Shown: positions 3,002 through 34,056 of the stretch, in pieces | Position numbering within the stretch: the stretch's first letter is position 1 | Layout of the letters: each line of letters opens with the position of its first letter | DNA from: an uncultured Peptococcaceae bacterium | Lineage (GTDB): Bacteria > Bacillota > Peptococcia > Peptococcales > Peptococcaceae | Length of the DNA stretch: 64,000 bases | Reading direction: 5' to 3' | Assembly: GCA_947254645.1 (NCBI GenBank) | Contig: CAMYDW010000001.1 | Location: 63,433-127,432 of the forward strand | Position numbers and translations under genes: made by a program | Notes under the pieces: model-generated | What the model was told of the DNA's origin: nothing | What the model saw: the letters and a program-made list of their open reading frames with translations, nothing else | The model's database searches: none

Positions 3002-3035
3002 AAAATCCCCCTCCTTAAATTTTTTAAAAGTGTCA

Positions 3036-3232
3036 GACCAATTTTAAAGGGATGAAAATAATGTGAGATAATATCGAGAATCCATGTGCCTTATTTTTAA
3101 TCAGATTAAAAGGCGCAATAAAATTGGTCAGTAGACAGAAATGGGATTGTTTAAATTTTCTGTCTTTAATAGTATTAAACACTGTCATAAAAAATATGTC
3201 AATATAAAAGGCGATAAAATGGTTGACCAATT
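3036..3232. promoter_or_regulatory. Three copies of GACCAATT (3036-3043 direct, 3122-3129 inverted, 3225-3232 direct, the last within AATGGTTGACCAATT) in the lctP / GntR divergent intergenic region; FadR/LldR-type TGGT-N-ACCA operators
   Basis: Repeats read directly from the sequence; LldR/PdhR-type FadR-subfamily regulators bind AATTGGT-N3-ACCAATT-like sites. Confidence 0.55.
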
Positions 3233-3301
3233 CATAATGATGTCTTATATTACTAATTATTCTATGATAAAATATGAGCCGACACGTGAGGAGGAAGACA
3301 A

Positions 3302-3991: not shown

Positions 3992-4080
3992 TGGCTATGA
4001 AAATAGATGGTTTTTCTTTCAAAGATGGGTATAGATAGAGTAAAGGCGCTAGGCCATTTGAGAGAAAGAAGGCTATTGTT

Positions 4081-4626
4081 TTGACAACTATCTATGATTA
4101 TTCAGTGTCGCAAGCAGATGGGACCAGTTTGTCCCTAGAAAGCTTGAAAGGCAAAGTTTTACTTATTGTGAATACTGCCACAGGCTGTGGCTTCACCCCT
4201 CAGTATGAACAGCTTGAAGCCATGTATGAGTCCTATCACGAACAAGGCTTGGAGATTATTGATATTCCTTGTAACCAGTTTGCAGGTCAAGCCCCAGGGA
4301 CCGATACAGAAATTCGTCAATTTTGTTTACTGAAATATCAGACCCAATTTCCACAAATGAAAAAGTCCGATGTGAATGGGGAAAATGCCCTCCCTCTTTA
4401 TGCGTATTTGAAAAGTCAGCAAGGGTTTCAATCCTTGGGTAAAGGATTGAAGGCTTTTTTGATGCGTGGCTTGCTTAAGAAGCAGGACAAAAATTATCGC
4501 GACAATCCTGACATCAAATGGAACTTCACCAAGTTTGTTGTGGATCGACAAGGCAAGGTGGTTGCTCGTTTTGAACCCACGCAGGATATGGCAGCCTTGG
4601 AAGCTTGCGTAAAGTCGTTGCTTTAA
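4081..4626 (+). CDS. Glutathione peroxidase
   Basis: GPx motifs NTATGCGFTPQY and NQFAGQAPG; TTG start. Confidence 0.9.
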   Translation: MTTIYDYSVSQADGTSLSLESLKGKVLLIVNTATGCGFTPQYEQLEAMYESYHEQGLEIIDIPCNQFAGQAPGTDTEIRQFCLLKYQTQFPQMKKSDVNGENALPLYAYLKSQQGFQSLGKGLKAFLMRGLLKKQDKNYRDNPDIKWNFTKFVVDRQGKVVARFEPTQDMAALEACVKSLL

Positions 4627-4633
4627 AAGAAAA

Positions 4634-4680
4634 ACCTCCGTTAAATTCATTTTACAACGAATTTAACGGAGGTTTTTTTT
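4634..4680. terminator. Bidirectional terminator (gpx / DMT transporter)
   Basis: CCTCCGTTAAATTC ... GAATTTAACGGAGG hairpin followed by a T-run. Confidence 0.7.
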
Positions 4681-4690
4681 CTTTGTCGTA

Positions 4691-5608
4691 CTATTTGGAG
4701 TCAGTTGCTAGGCAACTGGTGTTTTTTTGATGGATTTTTTTCTGTAAAGTCAGTGGCTTTTTCTCGAGATATTTTGAGAGAAGAATACTCCCGATAATAA
4801 GAATGGCCCCGAGGATGCCACTCATGGTGATGGTTGTCCCCATGAACAGGGCATCGAGCAGCATAATAACCATGGGTGGAATGGCACAAAGTAGCCCGAC
4901 TCTATCAGCCGTGGTGTAGCGTTGTGCCACTGGCTGAAGGGTGAACCCTAGGATGGTACAAAAGATAACGAGAACGACCACGACACTCCATAATTGAGGA
5001 GTGGCAGGCAATTGAGGTTCTTCAAACAAAAAGGCAAGTGGCAAGGCGAAAAGACCTGTAAAGCCATTTTGTAAGATACCGAGAAGCACAGTGTCATCCT
5101 CTTTGGCAAAGCGATCTGTCAAAAGGATGATGAGTGCTAGAAAAATAGCTGCTAGTAAGGTGACCCACTCTCCTATCCCAAGGGTGAGAGCACCATCCTT
5201 CAGCGTCAACAAACCGATGCCCGCCATGGCCATAAGAGCACAGAAAAGAGCGCTCATATTTGGACGTTTTTTTGTGGTGAAAACAGCGAACAACGGAATA
5301 AGTACAATCGCAGTGCTCTCTAGGAAACAACTGCTGGACGAAGAAATGGTTTTTAAACCAACCAATTCTAAAAACATCATTGTAAAACAAATGCCCCCTA
5401 AGAGCATCCCGTGGAATAATGTGCGTCGATTTAAACGGCGCATTCTTTTATGAAAAATAAGCGCCATTGGCAGGAATGCAAGCAAAAAACGTAGGGATAA
5501 TAAAGTCAATGGTGCTATTTCCGAAATACCTAATTTATTAAATAAAAAAGATGAAGCACGAAGAAGCAGTGCCGTGAAAACCAAAAGTTCTGCGTGTTGT
5601 CTACTCAT
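4691..5608 (-). CDS. DMT-superfamily (EamA-like) transporter
   Basis: 305 aa, about 10 TM segments, duplicated EamA-like halves; RBS AAAGGGGG. Confidence 0.75.
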   Translation of the reverse strand: MSRQHAELLVFTALLLRASSFLFNKLGISEIAPLTLLSLRFLLAFLPMALIFHKRMRRLNRRTLFHGMLLGGICFTMMFLELVGLKTISSSSSCFLESTAIVLIPLFAVFTTKKRPNMSALFCALMAMAGIGLLTLKDGALTLGIGEWVTLLAAIFLALIILLTDRFAKEDDTVLLGILQNGFTGLFALPLAFLFEEPQLPATPQLWSVVVVLVIFCTILGFTLQPVAQRYTTADRVGLLCAIPPMVIMLLDALFMGTTITMSGILGAILIIGSILLSKYLEKKPLTLQKKIHQKNTSCLATDSK

Positions 5609-5716
5609 TTTTACGCCCCCTTTAAAGCATTGTCTTTAGTATAAATTTGGAGTAGAATTGAGTAAAGCGACAGATAATCAAGGTTGATGTGATAAAAGGT
5701 CATAACAGGTGATAAA

Positions 5717-6583
5717 ATGGATACAGAAAAATGTAAAGCGTTGTTAATGGTATTGGAAAAAGGCAATTTGTCCGAGGCTGCAGAGATGTTAGGCTATACC
5801 CCTTCTGGTATGAGCCGTATGATGGCGGCCATGGAAAGAGAAAGTGGTGTTTCTCTGTTGGTCCGTACACGCCACGGGGTGCATGCAACAGCAGAATGCA
5901 AAAAATTATTACCGACTATTAGAGAACTGGCTAAATTGGGTGAAGTCTATGACCGAGAATGTGAGGAAATAAGTGGCTTATTTGTGGGGACGGTGCGGAT
6001 TGCATCGGCTTATGCAAGCTTTTTGCCAGCGATTTCTCTTGCCATTCATGCCTTTACCAAAGATTATCCAGGGGTTAAAATTGAAGCACAGGAGCATTTT
6101 AGTACGGTGCTATTAGAGCGTCTCTCACGCCGTGAGCTGGACATTTGTATTGTCAGTAAACGAGAGGGTGATTTTGACTGGCTGCCCTTAACAGATGATG
6201 ATATGCTGGTGTGGGTGCCCATGAGCTACGAAACCCATGGGGAAGAGGTCTATCCAATTAAGCGTTTTGAAACAGATGCCTTTATAGACATCTGTCCAGG
6301 CAATGAAAGTGATAATGCATTGGTTTTTGAACAATATGGTATCCATCCAAATGCCAAGTATTCTGCACTCACTACCTTTTCGGCGCATGCCCTTGTGGAG
6401 GCTGGCATTGGCGTGACGATGACCAATGGTATTGACGGACAGAATTGGGGCGGCAACGTGAAAACCCTTCGACCTTCTCCACGGATTGTGATTCCAATCG
6501 GGATAGCAAGTCAGCGACAAGAAGAAATGACCCCTGCTGCAAAAAGATTTTTAAGCTATGTACGTGATTATTTAAAGGTCTGA
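5717..6583 (+). CDS. LysR-family transcriptional regulator
   Basis: N-terminal LysR HTH (LSEAAEMLGYTPSGMSRMMAAME) and C-terminal substrate-binding domain; divergent from the DMT transporter. Confidence 0.85.
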   Translation: MDTEKCKALLMVLEKGNLSEAAEMLGYTPSGMSRMMAAMERESGVSLLVRTRHGVHATAECKKLLPTIRELAKLGEVYDRECEEISGLFVGTVRIASAYASFLPAISLAIHAFTKDYPGVKIEAQEHFSTVLLERLSRRELDICIVSKREGDFDWLPLTDDDMLVWVPMSYETHGEEVYPIKRFETDAFIDICPGNESDNALVFEQYGIHPNAKYSALTTFSAHALVEAGIGVTMTNGIDGQNWGGNVKTLRPSPRIVIPIGIASQRQEEMTPAAKRFLSYVRDYLKV

Positions 6584-6611
6584 AGTATATTTAAAAAGAA
6601 AGGTGATTGAT

Positions 6612-7271
6612 GTGACATCCCTCAAGGCTTTGCCTGGCGTTAAAAGATGTTATTTTAAAAAGGGTGACTATCTCATTCGTATGGGCCAACGTATTGACTA
6701 TGTGTACTATCTTGAGAAAGGCCATGTCCACCGTGAAATGGTCAACGAAAATGGAGCCCGTACCTTTTTATCCCAGAAAATCGGTGGACAGTCTATTCAA
6801 TCGATTGTAGGCTTGCTCTCTCTTTATGACGAGCAAGGAAGAGATTTTGCGGATAATGATTTCATTGCCGCAACAGATTGTGTGTGTTATCGTATTCCCT
6901 CTGAAGCATGCAAGGAATTTTTTTTATGCCATCCCAAGCTTTTAGAAAAAGTGGTGTGTACAGCAGTGGCTGTTTCCAACGAGGTGCGACGTGTTTATTT
7001 AACAAAAACAGAGGTGCCTGCTTATGTGCATCTTTGCCAGCTGATTCTCCAGAGCTTGGTGGAGGATGAAACAGACTTGATTTTGCCAAAAGTTTTTACA
7101 AATATTGAAATTGCCAAAAGAGTGACCGCACACAAGGTGACGGTTTCAAGAATGCTAAGGGTATTGCGAGAGGAAGGCGTGATTGAAAAGACGCCAAAGG
7201 GATATCGCATTCTAGATATGGCGGCGTTACAGGCTTACGCCAATGGAAAAAAACGTTTGGTTTATCATTAA
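6612..7271 (+). CDS. Crp/Fnr-family transcriptional regulator (cNMP-binding-like domain plus C-terminal HTH), paralog 1
   Basis: C-terminal HTH IAKRVTAHKVTVSRMLRVLREEGVI; no Fnr-type N-terminal Cys cluster; start may be GTG 6603 or 6612. Confidence 0.75.
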   Translation: MTSLKALPGVKRCYFKKGDYLIRMGQRIDYVYYLEKGHVHREMVNENGARTFLSQKIGGQSIQSIVGLLSLYDEQGRDFADNDFIAATDCVCYRIPSEACKEFFLCHPKLLEKVVCTAVAVSNEVRRVYLTKTEVPAYVHLCQLILQSLVEDETDLILPKVFTNIEIAKRVTAHKVTVSRMLRVLREEGVIEKTPKGYRILDMAALQAYANGKKRLVYH

Positions 7272-7392
7272 TAAGAAAAAAAGACTTTTGAAATTTTTTC
7301 CAAAAGTCTTTTTTTATAAAAAAACACTCTTCAAATTAAGAGCAAATCGTGTTAATCTTTAGAACGGTTAAATGAACCTGTAGGAGGTAAAG

Positions 7393-8700
7393 GTGAAAAA
7401 ACTAGTCGTTTTAATACTAATGGTGGGGCTATTAATGCCAAGCCAATATATCGCTGCTGATGAACTCATGGATTTGACACACAAGGCAGGCTACAAAGAT
7501 GCCAAAATGATCAATAGACCAAAGTCGTCAATTGTTATTGATGGTAAAACAGGGGATATTCTTTGGCAGGACAACGTGGATGAAATTCGAGATCCTGCAA
7601 GTATGAGTAAGGTTTTGGCGCTCTACTTGGTTTTTGAAGCAATGGCAGAGGGCAAATTCTCGCCAGATACCATTGTCACAGCCACGCCGGAGGATCAGGC
7701 CATTGCAAAAATTCATAGAATTAGCAATAACAATATTGTTGCTGGTGTGAATTATACGGTGTCAGAATTGATTACAGCAGCGGTGGTGCCATCTTCCAAT
7801 GCAGCGACTTTAATGTTGGCGCGCTTGGTAGAAGAAGATCCAGACCTCTTTCTTGATAAGATGAATGCAAAAGCAAAAGAATTGGGCATGACCAATTCCC
7901 ATTTTTATAATGCCAGTGGTGCAATGGCATGGGCGTTTGATGGCTATTACAAGCCAAAACGCTATGATAATTATCGCAATAATGAAACCACTGCACGTGA
8001 TTATGCGATTTTAACCTATCATTTTCTCAAGGATTATCCAGATATTTTAAAATACAGTGGGGAGTCCACTGTAAAGATCAAGGAAGGGACTCCTTATGAG
8101 GAAAGCTTCGACTCCTATAATTATTCTTTGCCAAATGGCGAATATGGCATCAAAGGGGTAACAGGGCTTAAAACGGGGTCTAGTCCAACAGCGGCTTTCA
8201 ATTTGACTGCCACAGCGAAACGTGGCGAGCAAGAAATTATTGCCGTTATTATGGGTGTCGGGGATTGGTCAGACCAAGGTGGAGAATATTATCGTCACCC
8301 CTTTGCCAATGCCCTGATGGAAAAAGCCTTTGCCGATTATGATTATAAAAAGGTCATCGAAAAGGGTGTTCAACGTATTGGTGACAAAAAGGTCAATGCT
8401 CAAAAGGATGTATATGCAACCGTTTCTGTGGATAAAGCCCCACAAATGCTAGTGAAAGAGGAGCAGCTGGTGATTGACAATGGCTTGAAAAATGTTTCGC
8501 CAATGATCGAAAAAGAGCAACAAGCCATCCTCGACCATGACGTTAGTGTGTCCGATGAATCTGCCACTTCTGCTAAAAAATCAGGGGCCTCAGATCAAGG
8601 AGAGCATGTAAGGAATATTCTTATCACTGGTGGGCTGATTGTTTTGGTTTTTGCAGGTCTGGTAATCATGAATAAGCTGCGCCATTTATTCAAAAAATAA
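7393..8700 (+). CDS. Serine-type D-Ala-D-Ala carboxypeptidase (PBP5/DacA-like) with C-terminal membrane anchor
   Basis: Signal peptide, SMSK (SxxK) active-site motif, SxN and KTG elements, C-terminal TM helix. Confidence 0.85.
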   Translation: MKKLVVLILMVGLLMPSQYIAADELMDLTHKAGYKDAKMINRPKSSIVIDGKTGDILWQDNVDEIRDPASMSKVLALYLVFEAMAEGKFSPDTIVTATPEDQAIAKIHRISNNNIVAGVNYTVSELITAAVVPSSNAATLMLARLVEEDPDLFLDKMNAKAKELGMTNSHFYNASGAMAWAFDGYYKPKRYDNYRNNETTARDYAILTYHFLKDYPDILKYSGESTVKIKEGTPYEESFDSYNYSLPNGEYGIKGVTGLKTGSSPTAAFNLTATAKRGEQEIIAVIMGVGDWSDQGGEYYRHPFANALMEKAFADYDYKKVIEKGVQRIGDKKVNAQKDVYATVSVDKAPQMLVKEEQLVIDNGLKNVSPMIEKEQQAILDHDVSVSDESATSAKKSGASDQGEHVRNILITGGLIVLVFAGLVIMNKLRHLFKK

Positions 8701-8873
8701 TAACTTAGAAAGTGCGCGTTGTTTTATCTATAAATGTCAGTATGGATCATACTGGCATTTATTTTTTTGTTAAAAGAAAATAAAAAAGCGCAAAAAGATA
8801 ACGAATGTTATCATGAAAGTGACACTTAATATATAAAATTAAATTATGTTAAAAATAAGAAAAGGGGGAGAGC

Positions 8874-10283
8874 ATGATGTCTCAAAAAAACATTGTGGCA
8901 CTTGGGCGTACGAAGAATGAGCTGGTGAAGTTGTTCATCACTGTATTCTTGCCGCTATGCTTCTTTTTTGTGCCAGTCAATGACAGTTTTACACCACAAA
9001 TTCGTTTATTCTTTGTTATTACTTTAATTGCAATTATTTCATTTGCGACCGATTCATTGCCACAAATGGGGGTGGCGTTATCCTTACCAATCATTTATGT
9101 ATTGACGGGACTTGCACCAGGACAGGTTGCTTTTGCACCATGGCTTGGTAGCATTCCATGGATGATGATTGGTGGCTTAATGCTCGCTTTGGTGCTTGAA
9201 AAAACAGGGCTTTTAAAGCGTATTGCATTCCTTTGTATTTTAGCAACGGGTGCAAGCTACAAGGGTATTATTTGGGGAATCACCATTGCAGGCGTGATCA
9301 TCAATATCATGATTCCAGGGAAAGGCGTTATTCCAATGGCTGCCTTATCCTATGGGATTTGCAAAGCCCTTGATTTAAAACCTGGGAAAGCATCTGGCGG
9401 TATCACCCTCGCAGCAGCGATGGGGTCTATTATGCCAATTCTTTATCTCTTTGCACCAGGGGGCATCATGATTCCATTGGGCATTGGGGCTTCTGCTGGC
9501 GGACCAAAAACCGTTGGCTGGTTGGAAATATTTACCAATAACGTGCCAATGGTATTCTATACTGTTTTGATGGCTTTTGTTGTGACCTTGATGTTCAAAC
9601 CAGAAAAGCCAATCTCTGGGAAGGATTATTTTCAAAATGAACTCTCTGCCATGGGGAGTATGAGCTTTGATGAAAAGAAATCCTTGTTTGTTACATTGAT
9701 TTTGATTACCTTCTTGGCAACAGGCAAGCTGCATGGTATTGATGCTGGCTGGGGTTTTGCCTTTATTCCTTGCCTATTCTTCCTACCAGGGATGGACTTG
9801 GTAGAAAACAAGGATTTGCCAAAAATGAACTGGGGCTTTATCTTCTTTATCACTGCCTGCCTTTCTATTGGGAATGTTGCTGGGGCAATGGGTATTGGGA
9901 AGATGATTGCTGCTTGGGCATTGCCACTGCTTGAAGGTAGAAGCTTCTATGTATTTTATCTCTTTGTTTGGTTGTTATTCTTTGTGATGAACTTCTTGAT
10001 GACGCCATTGGCAATGTTGGCGGCCTTTACCCAGCCACTTACAGAAATTGCCATCAGCTTGAATATTAATCCAATGACGTTGTACTACGTTATTTTAAAT
10101 GGCGCAGACCAAATTCTTTTGCCATATGAATATGCGCTTTATCTGATTTTCTTCTCCTTTGGTATGGTGAGGGTATCAGACTTTGCGAAACTGATGAGTG
10201 TCAAGGTGGTTGTCAACTTTGCACTGGTCTTTGGCTTGTTAATCCCTTATTGGAATTTGATTGGGCTTATTCCAATGCCATAA
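8874..10283 (+). CDS. Ion-transporter-superfamily permease (YfcC/DcuC/AbgT-like), paralog A
   Basis: 469 aa polytopic protein with hairpin-loop-like motifs; paralogous to the ORF at 14698-16176. Confidence 0.6.
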   Translation: MMSQKNIVALGRTKNELVKLFITVFLPLCFFFVPVNDSFTPQIRLFFVITLIAIISFATDSLPQMGVALSLPIIYVLTGLAPGQVAFAPWLGSIPWMMIGGLMLALVLEKTGLLKRIAFLCILATGASYKGIIWGITIAGVIINIMIPGKGVIPMAALSYGICKALDLKPGKASGGITLAAAMGSIMPILYLFAPGGIMIPLGIGASAGGPKTVGWLEIFTNNVPMVFYTVLMAFVVTLMFKPEKPISGKDYFQNELSAMGSMSFDEKKSLFVTLILITFLATGKLHGIDAGWGFAFIPCLFFLPGMDLVENKDLPKMNWGFIFFITACLSIGNVAGAMGIGKMIAAWALPLLEGRSFYVFYLFVWLLFFVMNFLMTPLAMLAAFTQPLTEIAISLNINPMTLYYVILNGADQILLPYEYALYLIFFSFGMVRVSDFAKLMSVKVVVNFALVFGLLIPYWNLIGLIPMP

Positions 10284-10420
10284 TTTTCCCTAAAAAACAC
10301 CGTGTGTCAGGGAGCACACGGTGTTTTTTTTGCATAAATGACGGTAGTGGTTTATTTTAACATGGGGTTATGGTATGCTAACTATTGGCATTCAACAATC
10401 TAGCGCCAAAGGAGGATACA

Positions 10421-10786
10421 ATGAAACAGTCATCTCAAACCGTACAAGAGAAAATAGAAAAAAAGCGCCAATCAGAGGAAGCGATTGTGGCTCAAATGAT
10501 TGGGCTGTATTGTCATGGCAAAAAACATACTCAAGATGGAAGCTTGTGTGAGGACTGTCAACGGCTTTTGGACTACGCGCATACACGCATTGAACGCTGT
10601 CCCTTTATGGAAACAAAAACATTTTGTGCTTATTGTAAGGTGCACTGCTATAAGCCAGAAGCGAAAGAGCAGATTCGTCAAGTCATGGCTTATGCAGGAC
10701 CACGTATGCTTTTACGCCATCCTTGGATGACCTTGTATCATGCCTTGACAGGCTTGCGAGGAAAGCTCCTTGAGGAGGAAAAGTAA
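10421..10786 (+). CDS. YgbA-like nitrous-oxide-stimulated-promoter family Cys-rich protein
   Basis: CHGK ... CEDC ... CPF ... CAYCKVHCYKP cysteine pattern typical of this family; ATG at 10421 after AAGGAGG. Confidence 0.55.
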   Translation: MKQSSQTVQEKIEKKRQSEEAIVAQMIGLYCHGKKHTQDGSLCEDCQRLLDYAHTRIERCPFMETKTFCAYCKVHCYKPEAKEQIRQVMAYAGPRMLLRHPWMTLYHALTGLRGKLLEEEK

Positions 10787-10871
10787 GTATTTTTGGCGAG
10801 TATTCCTAATAGCATTTTGACAGTTATGGGTCAATCAAACAAAAGATCAAATAAATCAGATAAACATTTAC

Positions 10872-10888
10872 AAAGTGTAGTCTGGACT
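10872..10888. promoter_or_regulatory. 17-bp motif AAAGTGTAGTCTGGACT (core inverted repeat AGTC-TG-GACT) about 25 bp upstream of a TATACT -10 box of the ASST gene
   Basis: Read directly; 16/17 identical to a motif at 14590-14606. Confidence 0.5.
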
Positions 10889-10975
10889 GTTGCTGTTAAA
10901 AAAAATCTTTTGCTATACTAAATATATAAATTGCACTAATGAAAATAATAAATGAGAAAATAACGGAGGTAAATA

Positions 10976-12865
10976 ATGGAAGCATTAAACTTTAAAAAAC
11001 AAGATCATATCATTACTGCTCAAAGAAAATCTGAAGAAGCTTTTTTAGCAGAATTTGAAGCAGGTAATTTTACCCTTACCAACCCTTTGGTAAAAATCAA
11101 CCCTTATTTGATTGCCCCACTCACTGCAATGGTGATGTTTGAAACCCCATCTGTATGTGAAGTGACTGTCATTGTTCATGGCAAAGAAGAAGCAGGGAAT
11201 ATCACCCACACTTTCCCAGCTGAAAAGAAACACGTATTGCCAATCTATGGTTTATATGCCAACTACAACAACCGTGTAGAAATCATCTTGTCTAACGGTG
11301 CACGTCATGATGTGATGATTGAGACCCCAGACTATGATGTAGAAGTGCCACAAGCAACTTCTTGCGAAACCACTCCAGAATACTTTGGCCAAAACATGAT
11401 GTTTGTAACCGCTTCTATTCGTTCTGTACCAGCTGGTTACGACTATAAAGGGGATGTACGTTGGTATTCTAACGTCAACCTTGCTTTTGACATCAAGCGT
11501 TTGAAAAATGGTCACATCCTTGTTGGGACTGAACGTCTTGTGAAGATGCCTTACTTCACCACTGGGTTGTATGAAATGGCATTCAGCGGTAAAGTCTTCA
11601 AGGAATATCAAATTCCATGCGGTGGTTATCACCATGACCAAATGCCAATGGAAGATGGCAACATTCTTTGCCTCACCTTTGATTTCTACTCTGGCACTGT
11701 TGAAGACGTTTGCGTATTGCTCGACAAAGAAACAGGCGAAATCCTCAAAAAATGGGATTACAAAAATGTATTGCCACAATTCCCAACTGCAGGCAGCGGC
11801 AGCCAAAACGAAGAAGACTGGTTCCATAACAACGCTGTTTGGTATGACAAAAAGACCAACTCTCTTTCCTTCTCTGGCCGTCACCAAGATGCCGTTATCA
11901 ACTTGGACTATGAAACTGGCGAATTAAACTGGATTCTTGGCGATCCAGAAGGTTGGCCACAAGAAATGGTAGACAAATACTTCTTTACCCCAGTAGGCGA
12001 TGGAGAATTTGACTGGCAATATGAACAACATGCTTGCATGATCTTGCCAGATGGCGATGTGTTCTTGTTTGACAACGGTCACTTCCGTGCGAAGAACCCA
12101 GACAACTACATCAAGAACAGTGAAAACTTCTCTCGTGGCGTACGTTATCGCATCAACACCGAAGACATGACCATCGAACAAGTATGGCAATATGGTAAAG
12201 AACGTGGTGCAGACTTCTTCTCTCCATACATCTGCAACGTTGAATATTATGATGAAGGCCATGTAATGGTTCACTCTGGTGGTATCGGTTATGAAGATGG
12301 CAAGACCTGCGAAGACTTTGCTGTTATGAAAGCCATGAAACCAGAATTCAAAGACCACATCACCTTCAATTCTATTACCTGTGAATTGGTCAATGATGAA
12401 TTGGTTTATGAACTTCAAGTGCCTGCAAACTGCTATCGTGCAGAAAAATTGCCATTGTACTATGCTGGTGAAGTGGCTGAACTCGGCGCAGGTAAAATCT
12501 TAGGTGAATTGATTGAAACCAAGACCACCAAGATGAAAATGAAAGCTGAAGAAACTGGAGAAATGATTCCAGATAGCTATGTTGTAAAAATCGTAGAAGA
12601 AGAAGACCGTGTATCCATTAACGCTATCTACGAAACAGGCGAAATGGCACAAATCCTTCTTATTGCAGAAAATGGTGACATCCGTCGTTATCCTGTAAAC
12701 ACCATTCCACAAGCATTTGCAGCAATGTGTGTAGGGACCTTCCAAAAAGAAGACCCACGCAATGTAGACGTATTCATCAATAAGAATGGTCTCGAAGGCA
12801 AATATGCTATCAAGATGCTTTGCGAAGACAAAATTTATGAAACAGGTGTTGTCATCAATCAATAA
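10976..12865 (+). CDS. Aryl-sulfate sulfotransferase (ASST family), no signal peptide
   Basis: 629 aa; ASST-family sequence character throughout; N-terminus hydrophilic with no signal sequence. Confidence 0.7.
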   Translation: MEALNFKKQDHIITAQRKSEEAFLAEFEAGNFTLTNPLVKINPYLIAPLTAMVMFETPSVCEVTVIVHGKEEAGNITHTFPAEKKHVLPIYGLYANYNNRVEIILSNGARHDVMIETPDYDVEVPQATSCETTPEYFGQNMMFVTASIRSVPAGYDYKGDVRWYSNVNLAFDIKRLKNGHILVGTERLVKMPYFTTGLYEMAFSGKVFKEYQIPCGGYHHDQMPMEDGNILCLTFDFYSGTVEDVCVLLDKETGEILKKWDYKNVLPQFPTAGSGSQNEEDWFHNNAVWYDKKTNSLSFSGRHQDAVINLDYETGELNWILGDPEGWPQEMVDKYFFTPVGDGEFDWQYEQHACMILPDGDVFLFDNGHFRAKNPDNYIKNSENFSRGVRYRINTEDMTIEQVWQYGKERGADFFSPYICNVEYYDEGHVMVHSGGIGYEDGKTCEDFAVMKAMKPEFKDHITFNSITCELVNDELVYELQVPANCYRAEKLPLYYAGEVAELGAGKILGELIETKTTKMKMKAEETGEMIPDSYVVKIVEEEDRVSINAIYETGEMAQILLIAENGDIRRYPVNTIPQAFAAMCVGTFQKEDPRNVDVFINKNGLEGKYAIKMLCEDKIYETGVVINQ

Positions 12866-12885
12866 TCACAATGTGATAACACTGA

Positions 12886-12925
12886 TGCTAAAAAAGAGCT
12901 GGTTGCTCAAGCAACCAGCTCTTTT
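12886..12925. terminator. Bidirectional terminator between ASST and the Crp/Fnr paralog 2 gene
   Basis: AAAAAAGAGCTGGTTGCTCAAGCAACCAGCTCTTTTGTT. Confidence 0.75.
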
Positions 12926-12935
12926 GTTGTACAAA

Positions 12936-13598
12936 TTATTTTTTGTAATGTAATTTTCTCTCTCCATGGGCATAGGTTTGAAGCAACGCTAAGTCGATGA
13001 TCAAAATCCCCTCGGGAATGCGTCGGAGACAGCCCTCATCTTCCAAAGCAATGATAACTTTGTTGACGGTGATACGATGCATCGCCAAAAATCTAGCGAT
13101 ATCTGTATTGGTATAGTGTCTGTGTAGGAGAAGCCCCTCATGCATTTCTTCTGCCTTGTCGATGATAAAGCTGGCAATACGAGGTGCCGCTTGTCCTTTT
13201 TGTTTTGCAAAGAAATTAGCAGCCAGATATTCATATTGACTAACTGCCATTTGCAATAGCTCAAACATAATAGAAGGATACTGGTGTAGAAAATCAATAA
13301 ATTCAGCATGTTGAATCTTGTAACAACGGCACTTTGTGGTAGTGACAAGACTATAAGTCATGAGGCGATTTTGAGTGATTGCAGCAAGTGAACCGAGGAA
13401 GGCACTCACAGAATCATCGCTGGTACGTTCATCCATGAAAATTTCTTCACCATTTGGGGTGTTACTCATGCGCATACAACTACCTTCTATTAAATAGTAC
13501 ACATAATCAATCTTATCATTACAATGATAAATCATTTCTCCTTTTTCAAAGGTCACGATGGGGAAATCCCTTAAATATTTAAAAAATTCCGGAGCCAT
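12936..13598 (-). CDS. Crp/Fnr-family transcriptional regulator, paralog 2
   Basis: Shares the DYVYYL and HTH architecture with the ORF at 6612-7271; start placed at MAPEFF (13598) behind RBS AAAGGG. Confidence 0.75.
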   Translation of the reverse strand: MAPEFFKYLRDFPIVTFEKGEMIYHCNDKIDYVYYLIEGSCMRMSNTPNGEEIFMDERTSDDSVSAFLGSLAAITQNRLMTYSLVTTTKCRCYKIQHAEFIDFLHQYPSIMFELLQMAVSQYEYLAANFFAKQKGQAAPRIASFIIDKAEEMHEGLLLHRHYTNTDIARFLAMHRITVNKVIIALEDEGCLRRIPEGILIIDLALLQTYAHGERKLHYKK

Positions 13599-13864
13599 AA
13601 GACCGCCCTTTCTTTTTTGCGATATGTTCATTCATATATTTTCAGTGTAACACAGATGAAATAAAAAGATAGCCCTATGTACGAGGAATCATATCAAGTA
13701 AAGTTCAAGAGGAGAATAGAAATTTTTTATGAATAACAAAGAATTGTATAGAGAGAAAATAGAGGAAAAGATGTGACTAAGACTTTTATTATCTTTATCC
13801 ATTGATATAATGGGTTGGGAAAAGAAAATCAAAATATATAACTCCAAGAAAGGTGTGGCTTGAA

Positions 13865-14539
13865 GTGGAACGTTTTCAGACGTCAGAGTCTATTCGATTG
13901 GGTATTGTTTTGGCGATGGCTGGTGGATTTATGGATGCTTATTCCTATATAGGGCGTGGTGGTGTCTTTGCCAATGCTGAAACTGGGAATATTGTGTTGC
14001 TTGCTGTGAGCTTGGGTGATGGACAATTTGGCATGGCGTTGCATTATCTTGCACCTATTATTGCTTTTGCAACAGGGGTATTGCTTTCTGAATGGGTGAA
14101 GCGCACCAAAAAAGGGTCGCTTTCGTTGTTTCATTGGCGTCAAATTGTTCTTATGTATGAAATGCTCTCCATGATTATGGTGGCGTTTTTGCCCCAAGAG
14201 TGGAATTTTTTGGCCAACTCATTGATTTCCTTGGCGTGCGGCATTCAAGTAACGACGTTTGCCAAAATTCATGGACATGGCATGGCCACGACGATGTGCA
14301 CAGGCAATTTGCGAACAGGGACTCAGTCTTTGAATAAATATTTTCAAACAAAGGATGCACGGCATTATAAGGATGCTGTTTTTTACTATGGTTGCATTGC
14401 TTGGTTTGTGATTGGTGCAATGATTGGCAATTTCTACACCCGTCAATGGCAAGAGATGGCGATTCTTGTGGTTGTTGGGCTGTTGGGTGTGGCGTATGTG
14501 ATGATGTTTTTTAACAAGGAAGCCAATAAAGATATGTAG
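13865..14539 (+). CDS. YoaK/DUF1275 (UPF0700) family membrane protein
   Basis: GGFMDAYSY motif and the 6-TM pattern typical of DUF1275; start probably GTG at 13865. Confidence 0.65.
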   Translation: MERFQTSESIRLGIVLAMAGGFMDAYSYIGRGGVFANAETGNIVLLAVSLGDGQFGMALHYLAPIIAFATGVLLSEWVKRTKKGSLSLFHWRQIVLMYEMLSMIMVAFLPQEWNFLANSLISLACGIQVTTFAKIHGHGMATTMCTGNLRTGTQSLNKYFQTKDARHYKDAVFYYGCIAWFVIGAMIGNFYTRQWQEMAILVVVGLLGVAYVMMFFNKEANKDM

Positions 14540-14589
14540 AAATCAATACCATAAGCAAGGGAAAAATGAAATAAATAAATAAAACTTAT

Positions 14590-14608
14590 AAAGTGAAGTC
14601 TGGACTTC
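14590..14608. promoter_or_regulatory. Motif AAAGTGAAGTCTGGACT containing the perfect palindrome GAAGTC-TG-GACTTC, about 20 bp upstream of a TATGAT -10 box of permease B
   Basis: Read directly; paralogous site at 10872-10888. Confidence 0.5.
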
Positions 14609-14697
14609 TCTTCATTGGGTTTTGGATATGATATAGTGCAGAAGAAAAGTCGAAGAAACGATGGCAATCGTTTGAAGGATGAAAAGGAGAAAGAAAA

Positions 14698-16176
14698 ATG
14701 GCAGAAAAGAAGAAAAAAGACCTGTATGCTATTCATGTGTGCATTGGCTTTGCAATCACTGCATTGTTTTGGTTGATGCCAGCGATTGAACCAATCACAC
14801 CCCTTGGTATGCGTTGTGTTGGTGCCTTTTTGGGCATGGTGTATATGTGGTCTACTGTTGACACACTCTGGCCAAGTTTATTAGGATTGTTCCTCTTTGG
14901 GATTTCCGGATTTGGTGGAGAAGGTGGCTTTAACGGCGTTTGGATGAATGCTGTTGGGGTCTACATGGTATTATTAACATTATTTGCAATGGTATTGTTT
15001 GGTGCAATGGATGAAGCTGGCGATACCAAATATATTGCAAAATGGTTTTTGACGAGAAAAGTCTTTAAGGGTCGTCCTTATGTCTTTATCGCTGTATTCT
15101 ATTTGACCTGCTTTGTACTCTCTGCAGTGGTAACCCCTATCACAGAACTTATTATTTTATGGCCAATCGCTTTGAGCTTGATGGCGACAATGGGTGTTAC
15201 AAGAGAAGATACTATTTGGAAATACTTCTTTGTTGGGATGTTCTTGGTGTCTACCTTGGCACAACCACTTTTCCCATTCATGGGTGCACAGCTTATTCCT
15301 TATGCAGCCTTCCAAAGTATGACCAAAACAATGGGCAATCCAATGACCATTCCAATGTTGCCATATATGTTGACCAATATTGTAATGACGACTTTGGTAA
15401 TGGCAGTATTCCTTTTGGCAATCAAATTCATCTGGCGTGCAGATGTAACGAAGTTGAAAGCCATTGACCCAGCACAAGTAGAAGCACAAATGCCACTACC
15501 TGCAATGAATCTTAAGCAAAAAGCGTATTTGGCAATGTTGCCTTCCTACTTGATCATGGTATTGGTACCAAGCTTCCTTAAAAACAATCCTGTTTCTGAT
15601 GCCTTGAATACCATTGGTGTTTTAGGGATCACCGTTGCATGGGTCATCTTGTTCTTGATGGTGCGCTTTGAAGGCAAGCCAATGCTCGACTTTAAAGAAG
15701 TGGCATACAAGCAATTTAACTGGGGCATTTTCTTCATGATTGCAGCAGCAGTATATGGGGCAAACAGCTTGTCCAACCCTACCACTGGTGTACCTGCATT
15801 CCTTATTCAAAGCTTGAAACCAATCTTAGGGGGCCGCAGTGAAATAGTATTTGTTGCCATTATGTTCACCGTGGCACTGATTATCACCAACTTTGCAAAC
15901 AATGCAGCAATGGCTGTTATTTTGATGCCAGTTGTATTGAACTTCTCAAACCAAATTGGTATCAATCCTATGCCTGTGGCAATGGGTGTTATCCTCATGG
16001 TATTCGTTGCAATGTTGACCCCTGCAGCATCTCCACACGCTGGTTTGATGCACGGGATGAAAACCATCTATACCACGAAAGAAATTCTCACCATCGGTTT
16101 CCCAATGTGTTTAGTAACCTTGTTGCTCTACATTTTTGTGGGTTACCCATTGGCAAAAATTTTACTCGGTGTTTAA
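14698..16176 (+). CDS. Ion-transporter-superfamily permease (YfcC/DcuC/AbgT-like), paralog B
   Basis: 492 aa polytopic; motif ITNFANNAAMAVILMPV resembles IT-superfamily hairpin motifs. Confidence 0.6.
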   Translation: MAEKKKKDLYAIHVCIGFAITALFWLMPAIEPITPLGMRCVGAFLGMVYMWSTVDTLWPSLLGLFLFGISGFGGEGGFNGVWMNAVGVYMVLLTLFAMVLFGAMDEAGDTKYIAKWFLTRKVFKGRPYVFIAVFYLTCFVLSAVVTPITELIILWPIALSLMATMGVTREDTIWKYFFVGMFLVSTLAQPLFPFMGAQLIPYAAFQSMTKTMGNPMTIPMLPYMLTNIVMTTLVMAVFLLAIKFIWRADVTKLKAIDPAQVEAQMPLPAMNLKQKAYLAMLPSYLIMVLVPSFLKNNPVSDALNTIGVLGITVAWVILFLMVRFEGKPMLDFKEVAYKQFNWGIFFMIAAAVYGANSLSNPTTGVPAFLIQSLKPILGGRSEIVFVAIMFTVALIITNFANNAAMAVILMPVVLNFSNQIGINPMPVAMGVILMVFVAMLTPAASPHAGLMHGMKTIYTTKEILTIGFPMCLVTLLLYIFVGYPLAKILLGV

Positions 16177-19721: not shown

Positions 19722-19912
19722 ACAAAAAAACTCCGAAATGACAGAATCATTCCAGAGCTTTTGCATACACTTATCCTAATACATCTTCTTCTATCCAGAC
19801 TATACTGTTGGTTTTGGAATTTCACCAAATCCTGATTTGAACCTATGCCAAATCCTGCGCAAGTGCGCTCGCGGACTTTACCGCCAATCGGGAATCTCAC
19901 CCTGCCCTGAAG
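19722..19912 (-). ncRNA. FMN riboswitch (RFN element) with terminator expression platform, leader of the rib operon
   Basis: Reverse complement reads AGGGCAGGGTGAGATTCCCGATTGGCGGTAAAGTCCGCGAGC ... GGTGAAATTCCAAAACCAACAGTATAGTCTGGATAGAAGAAG, then CTCTGGAATGATTCTGTCATTTCGGAG followed by a T7 terminator; promoter TTGACG-17-TATACT upstream. Confidence 0.9.
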
Positions 19913-20068
19913 ATACTATGAAATTGACTAAAGTATAATGAAAAAAAAGTGTGCCGTCAAGAGAGAAATCTTCTTTCAAAAAATGATTTATGGTATACTG
20001 TTTAGTAAATAACCGTTTTTGCCTTTGTATAAATCAATAAATTATACTATGCTTTTTATCATGAAAGG

Positions 20069-20701
20069 ATGAGTGCGTTGTCAGAAAAAGAAAAGCTTCA
20101 ACAGCTTGCATCTCAGATTCAGGCTTGTAAATGTGACCAGCCTTATTACTATGTAAGCTACTCCACACGTGATGGTGAGAGTGTCTATCAGGATGTATTG
20201 GCCCTACAACAAGCTGGCAAAAATTTATGGATTGATGTCGATGTGAATTTCAATACGGGTGAAGGCTATAACAGCACTATTTTCAATAGACTTGCAGATA
20301 CCAATTGTCTTGGCATTTTGTTTTTTATGAGTGCTCAGTCGATGACCTCTGCGCAAAGCACCAAGGAAGTGGCTTTTGCCACCAGTCATCGTGTGCTTGA
20401 TGGACGTGGCGAAGCATTGCCAATTTGCGTTGTTGCCCTTGAAGACATTGAGTTTGGAGATATTGAAAAGTGGGTGGAGGGCTCTCTGTATAGCCGCTAC
20501 CGTGAAGAAAAATTGAGTGCCTTAGAAGCAGAACGTATCGAAAAATATCGTCATAAATATAATAATAAAGTCAACCAAGCAGTGACAAAATTTGATTTAT
20601 CAGAGTGTATTTTAAAAGTGCTCAAAACCCAAGAAAAGGCATTTGTACCAATGCAGGACGGCGCTGAAAAAAGAGTAGAAAAAATACTGTCAAGCTTATA
20701 A
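20069..20701 (+). CDS. TIR-like domain protein (about 130 aa TIR/flavodoxin-like N-terminal domain plus about 80 aa helical C-terminal tail)
   Basis: YYVSYSTRDGESVYQDVLALQQAGKNLWID and ILFFMSAQSMTSAQSTKE match the TIR beta-A/alpha-A/beta-B and beta-D/alpha-C pattern (FISYS..D ... L..AL...G..V..D ... vvLS.nY..S.WC..E); own promoter; monocistronic. Confidence 0.5.
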   Translation: MSALSEKEKLQQLASQIQACKCDQPYYYVSYSTRDGESVYQDVLALQQAGKNLWIDVDVNFNTGEGYNSTIFNRLADTNCLGILFFMSAQSMTSAQSTKEVAFATSHRVLDGRGEALPICVVALEDIEFGDIEKWVEGSLYSRYREEKLSALEAERIEKYRHKYNNKVNQAVTKFDLSECILKVLKTQEKAFVPMQDGAEKRVEKILSSL

Positions 20702-33769: not shown

Positions 33770-34056
33770 TCTTCTCCTAGTAAGATAATAAAAATTGTTG
33801 ATTGCTCAAAAAATATTTGCCTATGATATTTGTGAAATATGAAAAGAAGCCTCTGAAAAGGGATTACTTGTGTATTTCGCATGAAAAAATAAAAAATTCA
33901 TTTGCTTGACAACCGTCTTGTACGATGATAACATTCTGGTATCATATGACTGACGGATAATGTGGAGCACCACATGGAGTATGATAGATGATAAAAGCCG
34001 ACCGTCTGGGCGAAAAGCCCAGATAGTCGGCTTTTTTGTGTGAAAAAGGAGATGAA

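Follow-up and report, generated by a model that had tools for sequence, protein, structure and literature searches.

Gene content and transcription units

Six genes, encoding permease A, a YgbA-like protein, an aryl-sulfate sulfotransferase (ASST), the Crp/Fnr-family regulator Crp2, a YoaK membrane protein and permease B, lie next to one another in the window, which is the whole 64-kb stretch of DNA that was analysed (Table 1). The ORF check confirmed their coordinates and order as given in the first-pass annotation, and Pfam searches confirmed the family labels of all six. Public identical contigs carry shorter calls for four of the genes. The locus had been described as accessory-looking; however, its G+C content (0.38–0.43) was unremarkable, no mobility genes or flanking tRNA were found at it, and the same gene arrangement was present in four independent assemblies.

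Table 1. Genes, terminators and operator-like sites of the locus (positions in the window)
Feature	ORF reading	Position	Strand	Basis or sequence
Perfect 16-bp palindrome 5' of permease A		8797..8812	.	GATAAC-GAAT-GTTATC; sequence scan
Permease A, DASS/SLC13-like IT-superfamily anion permease, 468 aa, monocistronic	8874-10283	8877..10283	+	PF00939
Intrinsic terminator 3' of permease A		10292..10332	+	ACACCGTGTG-loop-CACACGGTGT then T8; direct sequence reading
YgbA_NO-family Cys-rich protein, 121 aa	10385-10786	10421..10786	+	PF11756, NF007714
Predicted operator 5' of ASST		10872..10889	+	AAAGTGTAGTCTGGACTG, core TAGT-CTGG-ACT(G); shared 17-mer, conservation in relatives
ASST, leaderless, PAPS-independent, Cluster II (DhAST/DsAST) type, 629 aa	10976-12865	10976..12865	+	PF05935, PF17425
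Bidirectional intrinsic terminator, convergent ASST/Crp2		12890..12929	.	A6-GAGCTGGTTGC-TCAA-GCAACCAGCTC-T4; direct sequence reading
Crp2, Crp/Fnr-family regulator, 220 aa	12936-13631	12936..13598	-	cNMP_binding + HTH_Crp_2
DUF1275/YoaK membrane protein, 224 aa, between Crp2 and permease B	13853-14539	13865..14539	+	PF06912
Predicted operator 5' of permease B		14590..14607	+	AAAGTGAAGTCTGGACTT, perfect palindrome GAAGT-CTGG-ACTTC; shared 17-mer, conservation in relatives
Permease B, CitMHS-like IT-superfamily anion permease, 492 aa	14698-16176	14698..16176	+	PF03600

Direct reading of the sequence revealed terminators between the genes, which are organized in at least five separate transcription units and form no operon. 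The first-pass annotation had also listed the YgbA and YoaK genes as parts of the locus. Their family assignments were firm (YgbA_NO, E = 5.6e-41, and NF007714, 122.9 bits against a cutoff of 88; DUF1275, E = 3.9e-53); however, a tblastn search that covered 80 ASST loci and 83 permease loci found no YgbA homolog, that is, none in 160 related loci. YoaK homologs occurred near ASST only in three loci of one related Erysipelotrichaceae lineage and in none of 83 further loci. Both genes are lineage-specific neighbors and not conserved partners of ASST. The separate transcription units and the missing ASST linkage of YgbA and YoaK are in line with a coincidental neighborhood, in which the permeases would be ordinary di-/tricarboxylate or sulfate carriers, Crp2 would regulate other genes, and the ASST label alone would be meaningful.

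The sulfotransferase and the two permeases

The ASST matched Arylsulfotrans (PF05935, E = 8.9e-104, 347.9 bits) and Arylsulfotran_N (76.5 bits). Neither outcome that the first-pass annotation had set against its own reading was found: the ORF matched PF05935 strongly, and the permeases did not prove to be unrelated housekeeping carriers lacking a conserved gene order. The protein is 74% identical to DsAST of Desulfosporosinus sp. HMP52, an enzyme reported to be active (PMC11468790), and 70% identical to DdAST of D. dichloroeliminans; by sequence similarity, it belongs to the biochemically characterized DhAST/DsAST clade. With DhAST (Desulfitobacterium hafniense), DsAST and DalAST it shares an Ig-like N-domain, a beta-propeller ASST domain, a C-terminal extension, a length of ~628 aa, the lack of a leader and invariant catalytic residues. 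No earlier start codon is available to the ORF, which follows a GGAGG ribosome-binding site; its N-terminus is hydrophilic and conserved in 106 homologs, and there is no room for a leader. The enzyme is therefore cytoplasmic, as had been proposed.

Among the same 106 homologs, residues H219/H220, H284, N286, R302/H303, H352 and Cys585 were invariant and Cys420 nearly so. Alignment with AssT of E. coli was distant and local (E = 1e-28); in it, H219/H220, H284, N286, R302 and H352 correspond to positions in the catalytic region of 3ELQ, and the mutant entry 4P04 (H436N) identifies the aligned histidine. His352 is the predicted sulfo-histidine. AssT of E. coli CFT073 (Cluster I) has the same fold family and the sulfo-histidine ping-pong mechanism in common with the window enzyme, but it is a secreted, periplasmic enzyme that requires a disulfide and has its own Dsb oxidase pair, DsbL/DsbI, whereas the window ASST is cytoplasmic and linked to putative importers and a Crp/Fnr regulator.

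Permease B matched CitMHS with 72 bits, and its C-terminal hairpin region matched VcINDY at E = 2e-6. It is 71–78% identical to the tandem permeases at ASST loci of gut Peptococcaceae. Members of its family were found in 61 of 81 ASST loci overall and near ASST in 40 of the 52 species loci that had full flanks (5 kb or more on either side). In the reverse test, based on 30 metagenome permease-B loci with flanks of at least 4 kb, an ASST lay within 7 kb in 27 and a Crp gene was present in 26. ASST, permease B and Crp/Fnr occur together in Peptococcaceae, Desulfosporosinus, Lachnospiraceae, Erysipelotrichaceae and Cellulosilyticaceae. The co-occurrence in both directions sustains the earlier suggestion that a dedicated permease and a dedicated regulator accompany the ASST, and assigns permease B, on synteny, to an ASST-dedicated transporter family.

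The suggestion that both permeases are tied to ASST was upheld only in part for permease A. This permease (Na_sulph_symp, 83.9 bits), which one strain carries as two separate ORFs, belongs to a small family (~250 matches), whose members are named "SLC13 family permease" or di-/tricarboxylate transporters in the sources. An ASST link was found for four of the seven homologs looked up and in Holtiella, but not for the other three, nor at one additional locus. Genes of this family directly adjoin ASST-type genes in five independent contexts. Nor are the two permeases clear paralogs, as had been claimed: in BLASTP they were 24% identical over a stretch of 118 aa (E = 0.002) that surrounds their common NWG(F/I)(I/F)F region, and the best Pfam families differ, which makes them remote superfamily relatives.

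Since both proteins (permease A, 82 bits; permease B, 53 bits) fall far below the curated DASS cutoff of TIGR00785 (198.6 bits), homology tells nothing about their substrates. Like VcINDY and other DASS/CitMHS proteins, both match PF00939 or PF03600; together with the alignment of the permease-B hairpin to VcINDY, this leads us to expect elevator-type anion carriers. They differ from DASS/CitMHS carriers in forming families of their own, the defining trait of which is ASST adjacency. The coincidental reading gains from the best Pfam names ("sodium:sulfate symporter" and "citrate transporter") and from the names of the permease-A homologs; however, it is at odds with the permease-B synteny, which holds in both directions across several families, and with the five contexts in which the permease-A family adjoins ASST genes. 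In different lineages, three unrelated transporter families (CitMHS-like, DASS-like and MFS) stand beside Cluster II ASSTs, which fits the logic of import.

Crp2 and the shared operator

Crp2 and the upstream Crp1 (6603-7271) are full-length homologs (28% identity, E = 5e-31), in agreement with the relationship noted earlier. Crp2 is 40–42% identical to the Crp proteins transcribed divergently from permease-B genes in gut Peptococcaceae relatives, and it occupies the same divergent position. Crp genes lay within 6 kb of ASST in 24 of the 52 species loci with full flanks.

An identical 17-mer containing a 5-N4-5 palindrome has just two copies in the 64 kb, one lying 104 nt upstream of the ASST start codon and the other 108 nt upstream of that of permease B, although the pattern was derived from these same two sites. 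From the center of the ASST site downstream to the -10 box TATACT (10914-10919) is 30.5 nt, which puts the site at about -42 relative to the likely start of transcription; for the permease-B site, located downstream of the YoaK stop codon, the corresponding distance to the -10 candidate TATAGT (14632-14637) is 31.5 nt. Independent support comes from conservation in the Peptococcaceae clade, although the loci compared are themselves related by phylogeny. There, 28 of the 29 sites in 285 kb precede an ASST or permease-B gene, such a site is present at 28 of the 34 genes of these two kinds, and its distance from the -10 box is constant (30.5–31.5 nt). An operator that is kept in relatives and is almost exclusive to these promoters also contradicts the coincidental reading, which we strongly disfavor and consider very improbable. 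We propose that Crp2 activates the ASST and permease-B promoters. The six-gene unit of the first-pass annotation thus holds for three or four genes by synteny and fails for the full six; the real unit is ASST, permease B and Crp2.

A scan of the window revealed no shared operator upstream of permease A. The palindrome found there is the sole perfect copy in the window, but about two sites of its pattern class are expected by chance (two mismatches allowed), which makes it weak evidence; it may possibly represent a separate operator.

In 16 of the 52 species loci, the ASST is neighbored by a LysR-type regulator instead of a Crp; in Desulfosporosinus HMP52 the order is LysR-LysR-PermB-ASST-Trx-TrxR. 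A LysR-type protein could be what binds the operator in these relatives. The window contains no ortholog of this LysR (its own LysR is just 23% identical), and yet it keeps both the operator and Crp2.

CprK of Desulfitobacterium, the Crp/Fnr regulator of the dehalobox regulon, responds to a phenolic ligand. Crp2 resembles it in protein family, bacterial order, a 5-N4-5 inverted repeat near -41.5 and several separately transcribed targets, and by this analogy a phenolic effector is plausible. The half-sites differ, however ((G/T)(A/T)AGT-N4-ACT(A/T)(C/A) for the operator described above against TTAAT-N4-ATTAA for CprK), and a comparison of Crp2 with solved structures gave no CprK match at E <= 0.01.

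Proposed aryl-sulfate uptake and possible fates of the sulfuryl group

Work on Cluster II enzymes has treated them only as in vitro biocatalysts and does not describe what they do in the cell, which donors they use naturally or which genes surround them (PMC13426309, PMC11468790). Unlike the accounts of DhAST, DsAST and DalAST, the present analysis sets the enzyme in one regulon together with permease B and Crp2. As the earlier reading had supposed, no description of an ASST-permease-Crp unit was found in the published literature. The trio, carried here by a gut Firmicute and present across many Firmicutes, often together with thioredoxin and sulfite-reductase genes, provides a testable lead on the role of ASST in cells.

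We consider it probable that the three genes form a regulon for the uptake of aryl sulfates and transfer of their sulfuryl group. The mechanism that we infer, including ligand, DNA binding, substrate and transport direction, would begin with Crp2 sensing an aryl sulfate or its phenol and binding the palindrome ~42 nt upstream of both transcription starts, with class II activation of the FNR/CprK type. Production of AST in Eubacterium A-44 is induced by the donor substrate pNPS (PMC13426309). Permease B would then import aryl-sulfate monoesters, which do not pass the membrane on their own; the phenyl, p-cresyl, indoxyl, catecholamine and flavonoid sulfates of host or diet are candidates. Permease A, as a member of a second ASST-linked family, probably also imports aryl sulfates. 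By homology with the characterized enzymes, the sulfuryl group would be transferred onto His352 in a ping-pong reaction and handed to an intracellular acceptor, with release of the free phenol. To our knowledge, phenol-to-phenol transfer is the only demonstrated chemistry of the DhAST-type family. Import of a sulfate donor merely to re-sulfate another phenol counts against this explanation.

The opposite direction of transport would follow if the ASST sulfated toxic phenols diffusing into the cell and the permeases exported the products or exchanged them for the donor. The very wide range of phenols sulfated in vitro (PMC13426309, PMC12809581) is in line with such detoxification. The locus also has two permeases of different families, and some relatives from the DASS and CitMHS groups work by exchange. 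However, the donor aryl sulfate would still need import, for which export by itself does not account, and the linkage of ASST to thioredoxin, TrxR and AsrABC genes in relatives is left unaccounted for. We regard this alternative as improbable.

The same linkage points to sulfite production in relatives, and not only to phenol-to-phenol shuffling. Within 6 kb of ASST, the 52 species loci with full flanks contained TrxR-like genes in 31 cases, thioredoxin in 28 and AsrABC in 10; we found no paper describing any such link. The typical order, seen in Hungatella hathewayi DSM 13479 and in many metagenome contigs, is a divergent Crp followed by PermB, TrxR, Trx, two ASSTs, AsrA, AsrB, AsrC and CysG/HemCD, in which AsrA, AsrB, AsrC and the CysG N-terminal domain scored above the curated NCBIfam cutoffs. 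In Desulfosporosinus orientis, Trx/TrxR stand beside a short ASST type and a permease-A homolog. Gene content in the relatives therefore suggests a route from aryl sulfate through sulfite to sulfide, and their TrxR, Trx, AsrABC and siroheme genes point to a thiol as the acceptor, with release of sulfite instead.

In such a pathway, the sulfo-histidine would pass its group to a thiol of thioredoxin or to an enzyme cysteine, and the thiosulfonate would resolve into a disulfide and sulfite. TrxR would re-reduce the thioredoxin, and AsrABC or Dsr would respire or assimilate the sulfite to sulfide. Aryl sulfates would thus serve as an ATP-free "activated sulfate", resolved by the chemistry of PAPS/APS reductase (CysH), which likewise converts an activated sulfate ester to sulfite through a protein-bound sulfo intermediate resolved by thioredoxin; however, no CysH homolog would be involved, and the donor would be an aryl sulfate, not a nucleotide. 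We know of no ASST for which thiol-acceptor chemistry has been shown, and the characterized Cluster II enzymes are described as transferases only (PMC13426309).

As an explanation of the locus, we consider this reductive pathway rather unlikely, though less so than detoxification. TrxR, Asr and siroheme genes are absent from the 64-kb window, and its sole thioredoxin (404-712) is of the canonical WCGPC type and lies 10 kb away. The loci most closely related to that of the window, from the gut Peptococcaceae clade, all lack Trx/TrxR beside the ASST. In the window organism, the steps would fall to the housekeeping thioredoxin and to unlinked genes; without the Trx/TrxR/AsrABC/siroheme cluster, reduction to sulfide is inference here. 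Cys354, beside the catalytic histidine, showed no correlation with Trx linkage, whereas the conservation of Cys585 and Cys420 is in favor of the pathway. Moreover, the ASST-linked thioredoxins are a subgroup of their own, in which 35 of 44 have the active site TCGPC, and the ASST-linked reductases carry CAICD in 40 of 52.

The locus and its sulfotransferase

The six open reading frames were found at exactly the positions and in the order that the first-pass annotation had proposed, and all of its family labels were upheld by Pfam. Four independent public assemblies with an identical aryl-sulfate sulfotransferase (ASST) showed the same gene order, with slightly shorter start calls. In one of these four (L002/L086, Logan SRR18765394), the permease A gene was split into two called ORFs (250 and 230 aa), which points either to an assembly error or to a frameshift or pseudogene; permease A would be dispensable if the split is real.

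Features of the window and their assignments
Feature	Position	Strand	Assignment or remark
Thioredoxin	404-712		WCGPC type
Crp1	6603-7271		Upstream Crp/Fnr homologue
Palindrome GATAACGAATGTTATC	8797-8812		Perfect, 16 bp; 65 nt upstream of permease A
Permease A	8877-10283	+	Na_sulph_symp/CitMHS (Pfam)
YgbA			YgbA_NO (Pfam)
Shared site, ASST	10872-10888		104 nt before start codon
ASST	10976-12865	+	Arylsulfotrans + Ig-like N-domain (Pfam)
Crp2	12936-13598	-	cNMP_binding + HTH_Crp_2 (Pfam)
YoaK			DUF1275 (Pfam)
Shared site, permease B	14590-14606		108 nt before start codon
Permease B	14698-16176	+	CitMHS (Pfam)
FMN riboswitch	19779-19918	-	Rfam; before rib operon
210-aa protein	20069-20701	+	Between rib operon leader and rplU
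T-box leader	30402-30616	+	Rfam
ZTP riboswitch	33936-34018	+	Rfam; directly upstream of the next entry
Pyruvate formate-lyase activase + PFL pair	34036-37056
415-aa ORF	37648-38895	-	No Pfam match at E<=1e-5
Cation-diffusion-facilitator gene	51486-52484		Preceded by NiCo riboswitch
NiCo riboswitch	52427-52504	-	Rfam

Transcription of the six genes as a single operon is ruled out by terminators between the genes and by separate promoters of ASST and permease B. A strong terminator directly follows permease A, the gap between the convergent ASST and Crp2 genes holds a perfect bidirectional terminator, and both ASST and permease B are equipped with a promoter region and an operator of their own. 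These two obvious terminators were read directly from the sequence and were missed by a generic promoter and terminator scan, which performed no better than on shuffled sequence. The upstream flank (EamA, LysR, Crp1, and a PBP4-like carboxypeptidase) and the downstream flank (the rib operon preceded by an FMN riboswitch, then rplU and rpmA) are ordinary chromosome. Because the G+C content is unremarkable and mobility genes are absent, the initial description of the locus as accessory-looking was not borne out. No riboswitch or other known RNA was found at the locus itself, the Rfam matches of the window (FMN, T-box, ZTP, NiCo, and one tRNA) lying elsewhere. The L27 protein of the window fell into a cluster of at least 90% identity with gut MAGs named "Peptococcaceae bacterium."

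The ASST-like ORF matched PF05935, as had been claimed, with high significance and over the full length (347.9 bits against a cutoff of 24.2; model positions 3-367 of 374), so a failed match did not arise; the Ig-like N-domain PF17425 was found with 76.5 bits. Direct reading placed the start of the ORF at the first possible start codon, with a GGAGG site in front and a hydrophilic N-terminus; the protein is predicted to be leaderless, since a signal peptide could not be accommodated. It was 70-76% identical to enzymes of Desulfosporosinus, Desulfitobacterium, and Peptococcaceae, with values of 74% for the enzyme of Desulfosporosinus sp. HMP52 (DsAST), 70% for that of D. dichloroeliminans (DdAST), and 76% for the closest ASST among the GTDB species representatives. 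DsAST, which is reported to be active, and DdAST are 84 and 88% identical, respectively, to the Desulfitobacterium hafniense enzyme, DhAST (PMC11468790). A 2026 review assigned these ASTs to Cluster II, a Firmicutes group, and the periplasmic, Dsb-dependent enzymes, as in E. coli, to Cluster I (PMC13426309). The window enzyme, being close to DhAST and DsAST and devoid of a secretion signal, belongs to Cluster II; no dsb genes were found in the Pfam-annotated neighbourhood of ASST, the remaining window being only partly annotated.

Alignment with E. coli AssT (3ELQ) paired its residues H436, H252, H356/N358, and R374 with H352, H219/H220, H284/N286, and R302 of the window enzyme, and R302/H303 also fell within the aligned catalytic region of the solved E. 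coli structure. Since an H436N mutant entry marks the aligned E. coli histidine, H352 is assigned to the sulfo-histidine position. H219/H220, H284/N286, R302/H303, and H352 were unchanged in all 106 homologues. The window thus encodes a cytoplasmic ASST of the DhAST type that is predicted to be catalytically intact, and its 74% identity to active DsAST suggests PAPS-independent sulfuryl transfer between phenols. Given its clade membership and intact catalytic residues, we therefore class the enzyme as a new but ordinary representative of an already characterised clade. In addition, Cys585, located in a C-terminal extension outside the Pfam domain, was invariant in the 106 Cluster II homologues, while Cys420 was kept in 101 and Cys246 in 94 of them; all three are candidate thiol acceptors or structural residues. 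Cys354, which lies beside the catalytic His352, was considered as a marker of enzymes linked to thioredoxin and was rejected, as it did not correlate with that linkage.

Conserved neighbours and the two permeases

The gene neighbourhood was compared among 80 species-level loci with ASST homologues of 44-76% identity, 81 with the window, in which the ORFs were clustered without prior labels. The permease-B family was present in 61 of the 81 loci, followed by thioredoxin reductase-like (TrxR) genes in 46, thioredoxin (Trx) genes in 44, Crp/Fnr genes in 40, LysR genes in 28, an unannotated 238-aa protein in 25, AsrA, AsrB, and AsrC in 12-15, and siroheme genes in 9-12. In the 52 loci whose flanks reached 5 kb or more to either side of ASST, permease B was counted within 6 kb of this gene in 40, TrxR in 31, Trx in 28, Crp in 24, LysR in 16, and Asr in 10. 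In the opposite direction, metagenomes were scanned with an alignment of permease B. This yielded 30 loci with at least 4 kb of flanks, of which 27 had an ASST-type gene no more than 7 kb away and 26 a Crp gene; the number of independent cases is below 30, because many of these contigs are near-duplicates. The permease-B family is essentially dedicated to ASST loci. The proposal that the six genes travel together accordingly held for permease B and Crp, held in part for permease A, and failed for YgbA and YoaK. YgbA was found in no related locus, and YoaK was limited to three related loci of Erysipelotrichaceae, where it lay 4-5 kb from ASST; both were rejected as components of the system.

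In the closest relatives, the gut Peptococcaceae MAGs, the order was Crp< PermB> PermB> AzlD< AzlC< LysR> ASST>, with identities to the window of 71-78% for permease B, 73-76% for ASST, and 40-42% for Crp. Compared with these relatives, the window has retained the divergent arrangement of Crp2 and permease B, but YoaK has been inserted between these two genes and ASST is located on the other side. The protein of about 238 aa found in 25 loci (e.g., L053:3498-4211(-)) is usually divergent from or beside Crp and recurs next to the Crp-PermB-ASST module in Lachnospiraceae and Erysipelotrichaceae; it has no Pfam or NCBIfam match and by eye resembles a phosphoribosyltransferase with a C-terminal CxxC.

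The two permeases had been described as clear paralogs, a view that comparison did not support: BLASTP aligned them with 24% identity over 118 aa (E=0.002), around NWG(F/I)(I/F)F, and their sequences indicate remote relatives within a superfamily. Both missed the TIGR00785 (DASS/SLC13) cutoff of 198.6 bits (permease A, 82.3; permease B, 52.8) and reached Pfam-level families only (PF00939, PF03600).

The permease-A family is small (about 250 matches, named "SLC13 family permease" in the sources). Four of the seven homologues that were looked up lay directly downstream of a short ASST-type gene (486-495 aa, matching PF05935 and PF14269), usually accompanied by a Crp gene or Trx/TrxR-like genes. 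This short type has 24% identity to the ASST of the window, and its DWxHxN and QH motifs are retained. In Holtiella, the place of permease B, next to Crp and a long ASST, was taken by a 39% permease-A homologue. No ASST was found near the other three homologues (Gordonibacter, Peptococcus simiae, and one related Clostridiales contig) or near that of locus L109, giving five ASST-adjacent contexts against four without. The Gordonibacter sp. An230 locus (L090, 8001-15280) represents a different anion-catabolic context for this family, in which two LysR genes precede a 43% permease-A homologue that is followed by a glycyl-radical enzyme, an activase, an amidohydrolase, and an ArsB/CitMHS-type carrier.

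One of the four homologues next to a short ASST-type gene belongs to a second ASST locus in the metagenome assembly that holds the window contig (L087, ENA ERZ28567016 scaffold_1, 1697-9383), with the order Crp> short ASST (489 aa)> PermB-like (41% identity)> Crp> short ASST (495 aa)> PermA-like (71% identity), with another Crp gene and a hybrid-cluster protein (Prismane) downstream. This locus probably comes from the window organism or a close relative; if from the same organism, several ASST-permease-Crp modules would coexist in it. Desulfitobacterium sp. THU1 and one Desulfosporosinus locus have an MFS transporter beside ASST instead. The occurrence of three unrelated transporter families next to a predicted leaderless ASST would fit the need to import a charged substrate. 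A PF03601 (Cons_hypoth698, YeiH-type) membrane protein was also located directly beside ASST in several loci (L064:11962-13008, L072, L079, L081, and L089:15672-17021) where Trx/TrxR genes are present and permease B is missing downstream; this protein may represent a further anion carrier of the ASST system.

The shared operator and its candidate regulator

The sequence AAAGTG(T/A)AGTCTGGACT was common to the upstream regions of ASST and permease B. No third match was found in the window with three mismatches allowed, a count that is circular because the pattern was derived from the same two sites. Comparison with the relatives, as an independent line of support, demonstrated that the operator is kept there, as is the position of Crp relative to permease B. 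The core palindrome (G/T)(A/T)AGT-N4-ACT(A/T)(C/A) occurred upstream of nearly all permease-B and ASST genes of the Peptococcaceae clade. Its strict form, TAGTCYRGACTA, was present once per locus in 17 loci, always before ASST. A degenerate 11-mer gave 29 sites in 285 kb, of which 28 preceded the start of an ASST or permease-B gene by 98-147 nt; such a site was present for 28 of the 34 genes of these two kinds. In the window, the operator was absent upstream of permease A, YgbA, YoaK, and Crp2 itself. The perfect palindrome upstream of permease A occurred in the window only once.

In the window and relatives alike, 30.5-31.5 nt separated the centre of the operator palindrome from the -10 hexamer, which places the operator near -42. 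Class II activators of the FNR/CprK type typically have sites of this 5-N4-5 form at such a position. Crp2 matched PF00027 (49.3 bits) and PF13545 (37.3 bits) and aligned over its full length with solved Crp-family structures. Its proposed paralogy with the upstream Crp gene was confirmed, the two being distant paralogs (28% identity over the full length, E=5e-31). Two assignments of Crp2 within the superfamily were rejected. The sequence does not support FNR proper, as the N-terminal Cys-X2-Cys-X5-Cys is absent and NCBIfam FNR-type models scored only 19-23 against cutoffs of 300 bits. Nor does it support a CprK orthologue, since CprK was absent among its 33 solved-structure matches (E<=0.01) and the operator half-sites differ: the CprK dehalobox is TTAAT-N4-ATTAA and shares with the operator of the window no more than the 5-N4-5 architecture and a location around -42.

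Crp2 is the most economical candidate for the operator-binding protein, because the window keeps the operator and Crp2 and has no orthologue of the LysR gene adjacent to ASST in the relatives. An aryl sulfate or a phenol would prompt Crp2 to bind the operator, permease B and probably also permease A would import aryl-sulfate monoesters, and ASST would move the sulfuryl group via His352. In Eubacterium A-44, the donor pNPS induces AST production (PMC13426309), which by analogy would fit a ligand-responsive activator.

Linkage to thioredoxin and sulfite reductase genes

The order Crp-PermB-TrxR-Trx-ASST-ASST-AsrABC-siroheme recurred in Hungatella, Lachnospiraceae, Roseburia-like, and Erysipelotrichaceae genomes, and the AsrA, AsrB, AsrC, and CysG N-domain sequences of the relatives scored above the curated NCBIfam cutoffs. 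TCGPC replaced WCGPC in 35 of the 44 ASST-linked thioredoxins (loci L008-L081, e.g., L060:9580-9888), and 40 of the 52 ASST-adjacent TrxR-like genes encoded CAICD (e.g., L076:11948-12874). The scores of the linked Trx and TrxR were just below the NCBIfam equivalog cutoffs, so both look like specialised paralogues; their sequences suggest a dedicated redox pair.

The gene order and the TCGPC thioredoxins of the relatives suggest that the sulfuryl group might be transferred to a thiol, with release of sulfite and its subsequent reduction to sulfide; sulfite release via a thiol would resemble PAPS reductase. To our knowledge, the demonstrated chemistry of the ASST family is phenol-to-phenol transfer only. 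We tentatively consider that Cluster II ASSTs might act in vivo as entry enzymes of an aryl-sulfate reduction pathway, and not as phenol-to-phenol "shufflers." In such a pathway, the permeases would import host or diet aryl sulfates, the sulfo-histidine would pass its group to the TCGPC thioredoxin, which TrxR would recycle, sulfite would be formed without ATP sulfurylase or APS/PAPS, and AsrABC or Dsr would convert it to H2S; as a whole, this reading is rather doubtful. If true, it would add a new sulfide route in sulfate-non-reducing gut Firmicutes (Hungatella, Lachnospiraceae, Erysipelotrichaceae, Peptococcaceae), by which sulfated phenols, drugs, and hormones would be deconjugated without a sulfatase.

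No Trx, TrxR, Asr, or siroheme genes linked to ASST were detected in the window by tblastn. The thioredoxin gene of the window was rejected as a dedicated partner, as it is of the canonical type and has no adjacent reductase. Because the window and its closest clade are both without linked Trx, TrxR, and Asr, a reductive route in the window organism is to be taken as a possibility only; under the proposed pathway, this organism would have a reduced system of regulator, permeases, and ASST.

According to two recent papers (PMC13426309, 2026; PMC12809581, 2025), neither the physiological role nor the natural donors are known for the PAPS-independent aryl sulfotransferases of bacteria. Handles on this role are provided by the dedicated importer family, by a Crp/Fnr regulator with a defined candidate operator, and, in many gut Firmicutes, by the fixed linkage to a specialised thioredoxin system and an anaerobic sulfite reductase. 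No description of ASST links to transporters, a regulon, an operator, or Trx/TrxR/Asr was found in a literature search that left most subscription journals uncovered, so that an earlier description is possible; within that scope, the enzyme is a new member of a known clade, and no account was met of the regulon, of its operator, of either ASST-linked transporter family, or of the linkage to Trx/TrxR/Asr. The interest comes mostly from the relatives and less from the reduced locus of the window. Should the linkage represent a pathway, sulfated metabolites of the host and of drugs, for example p-cresyl, indoxyl, acetaminophen, catecholamine, and steroid sulfates, could be converted by gut bacteria to free phenols, sulfite, and H2S, which would be relevant to uraemic toxins, to enterohepatic recycling, and to the production of sulfide in the colon. 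If it does not, the regulon would still provide the first candidate aryl-sulfate transporters and sensor in Firmicutes.

Outside the locus, the 210-aa protein encoded alone between the rib operon leader and rplU showed a borderline TIR_2 match (27.8 bits against a cutoff of 28).
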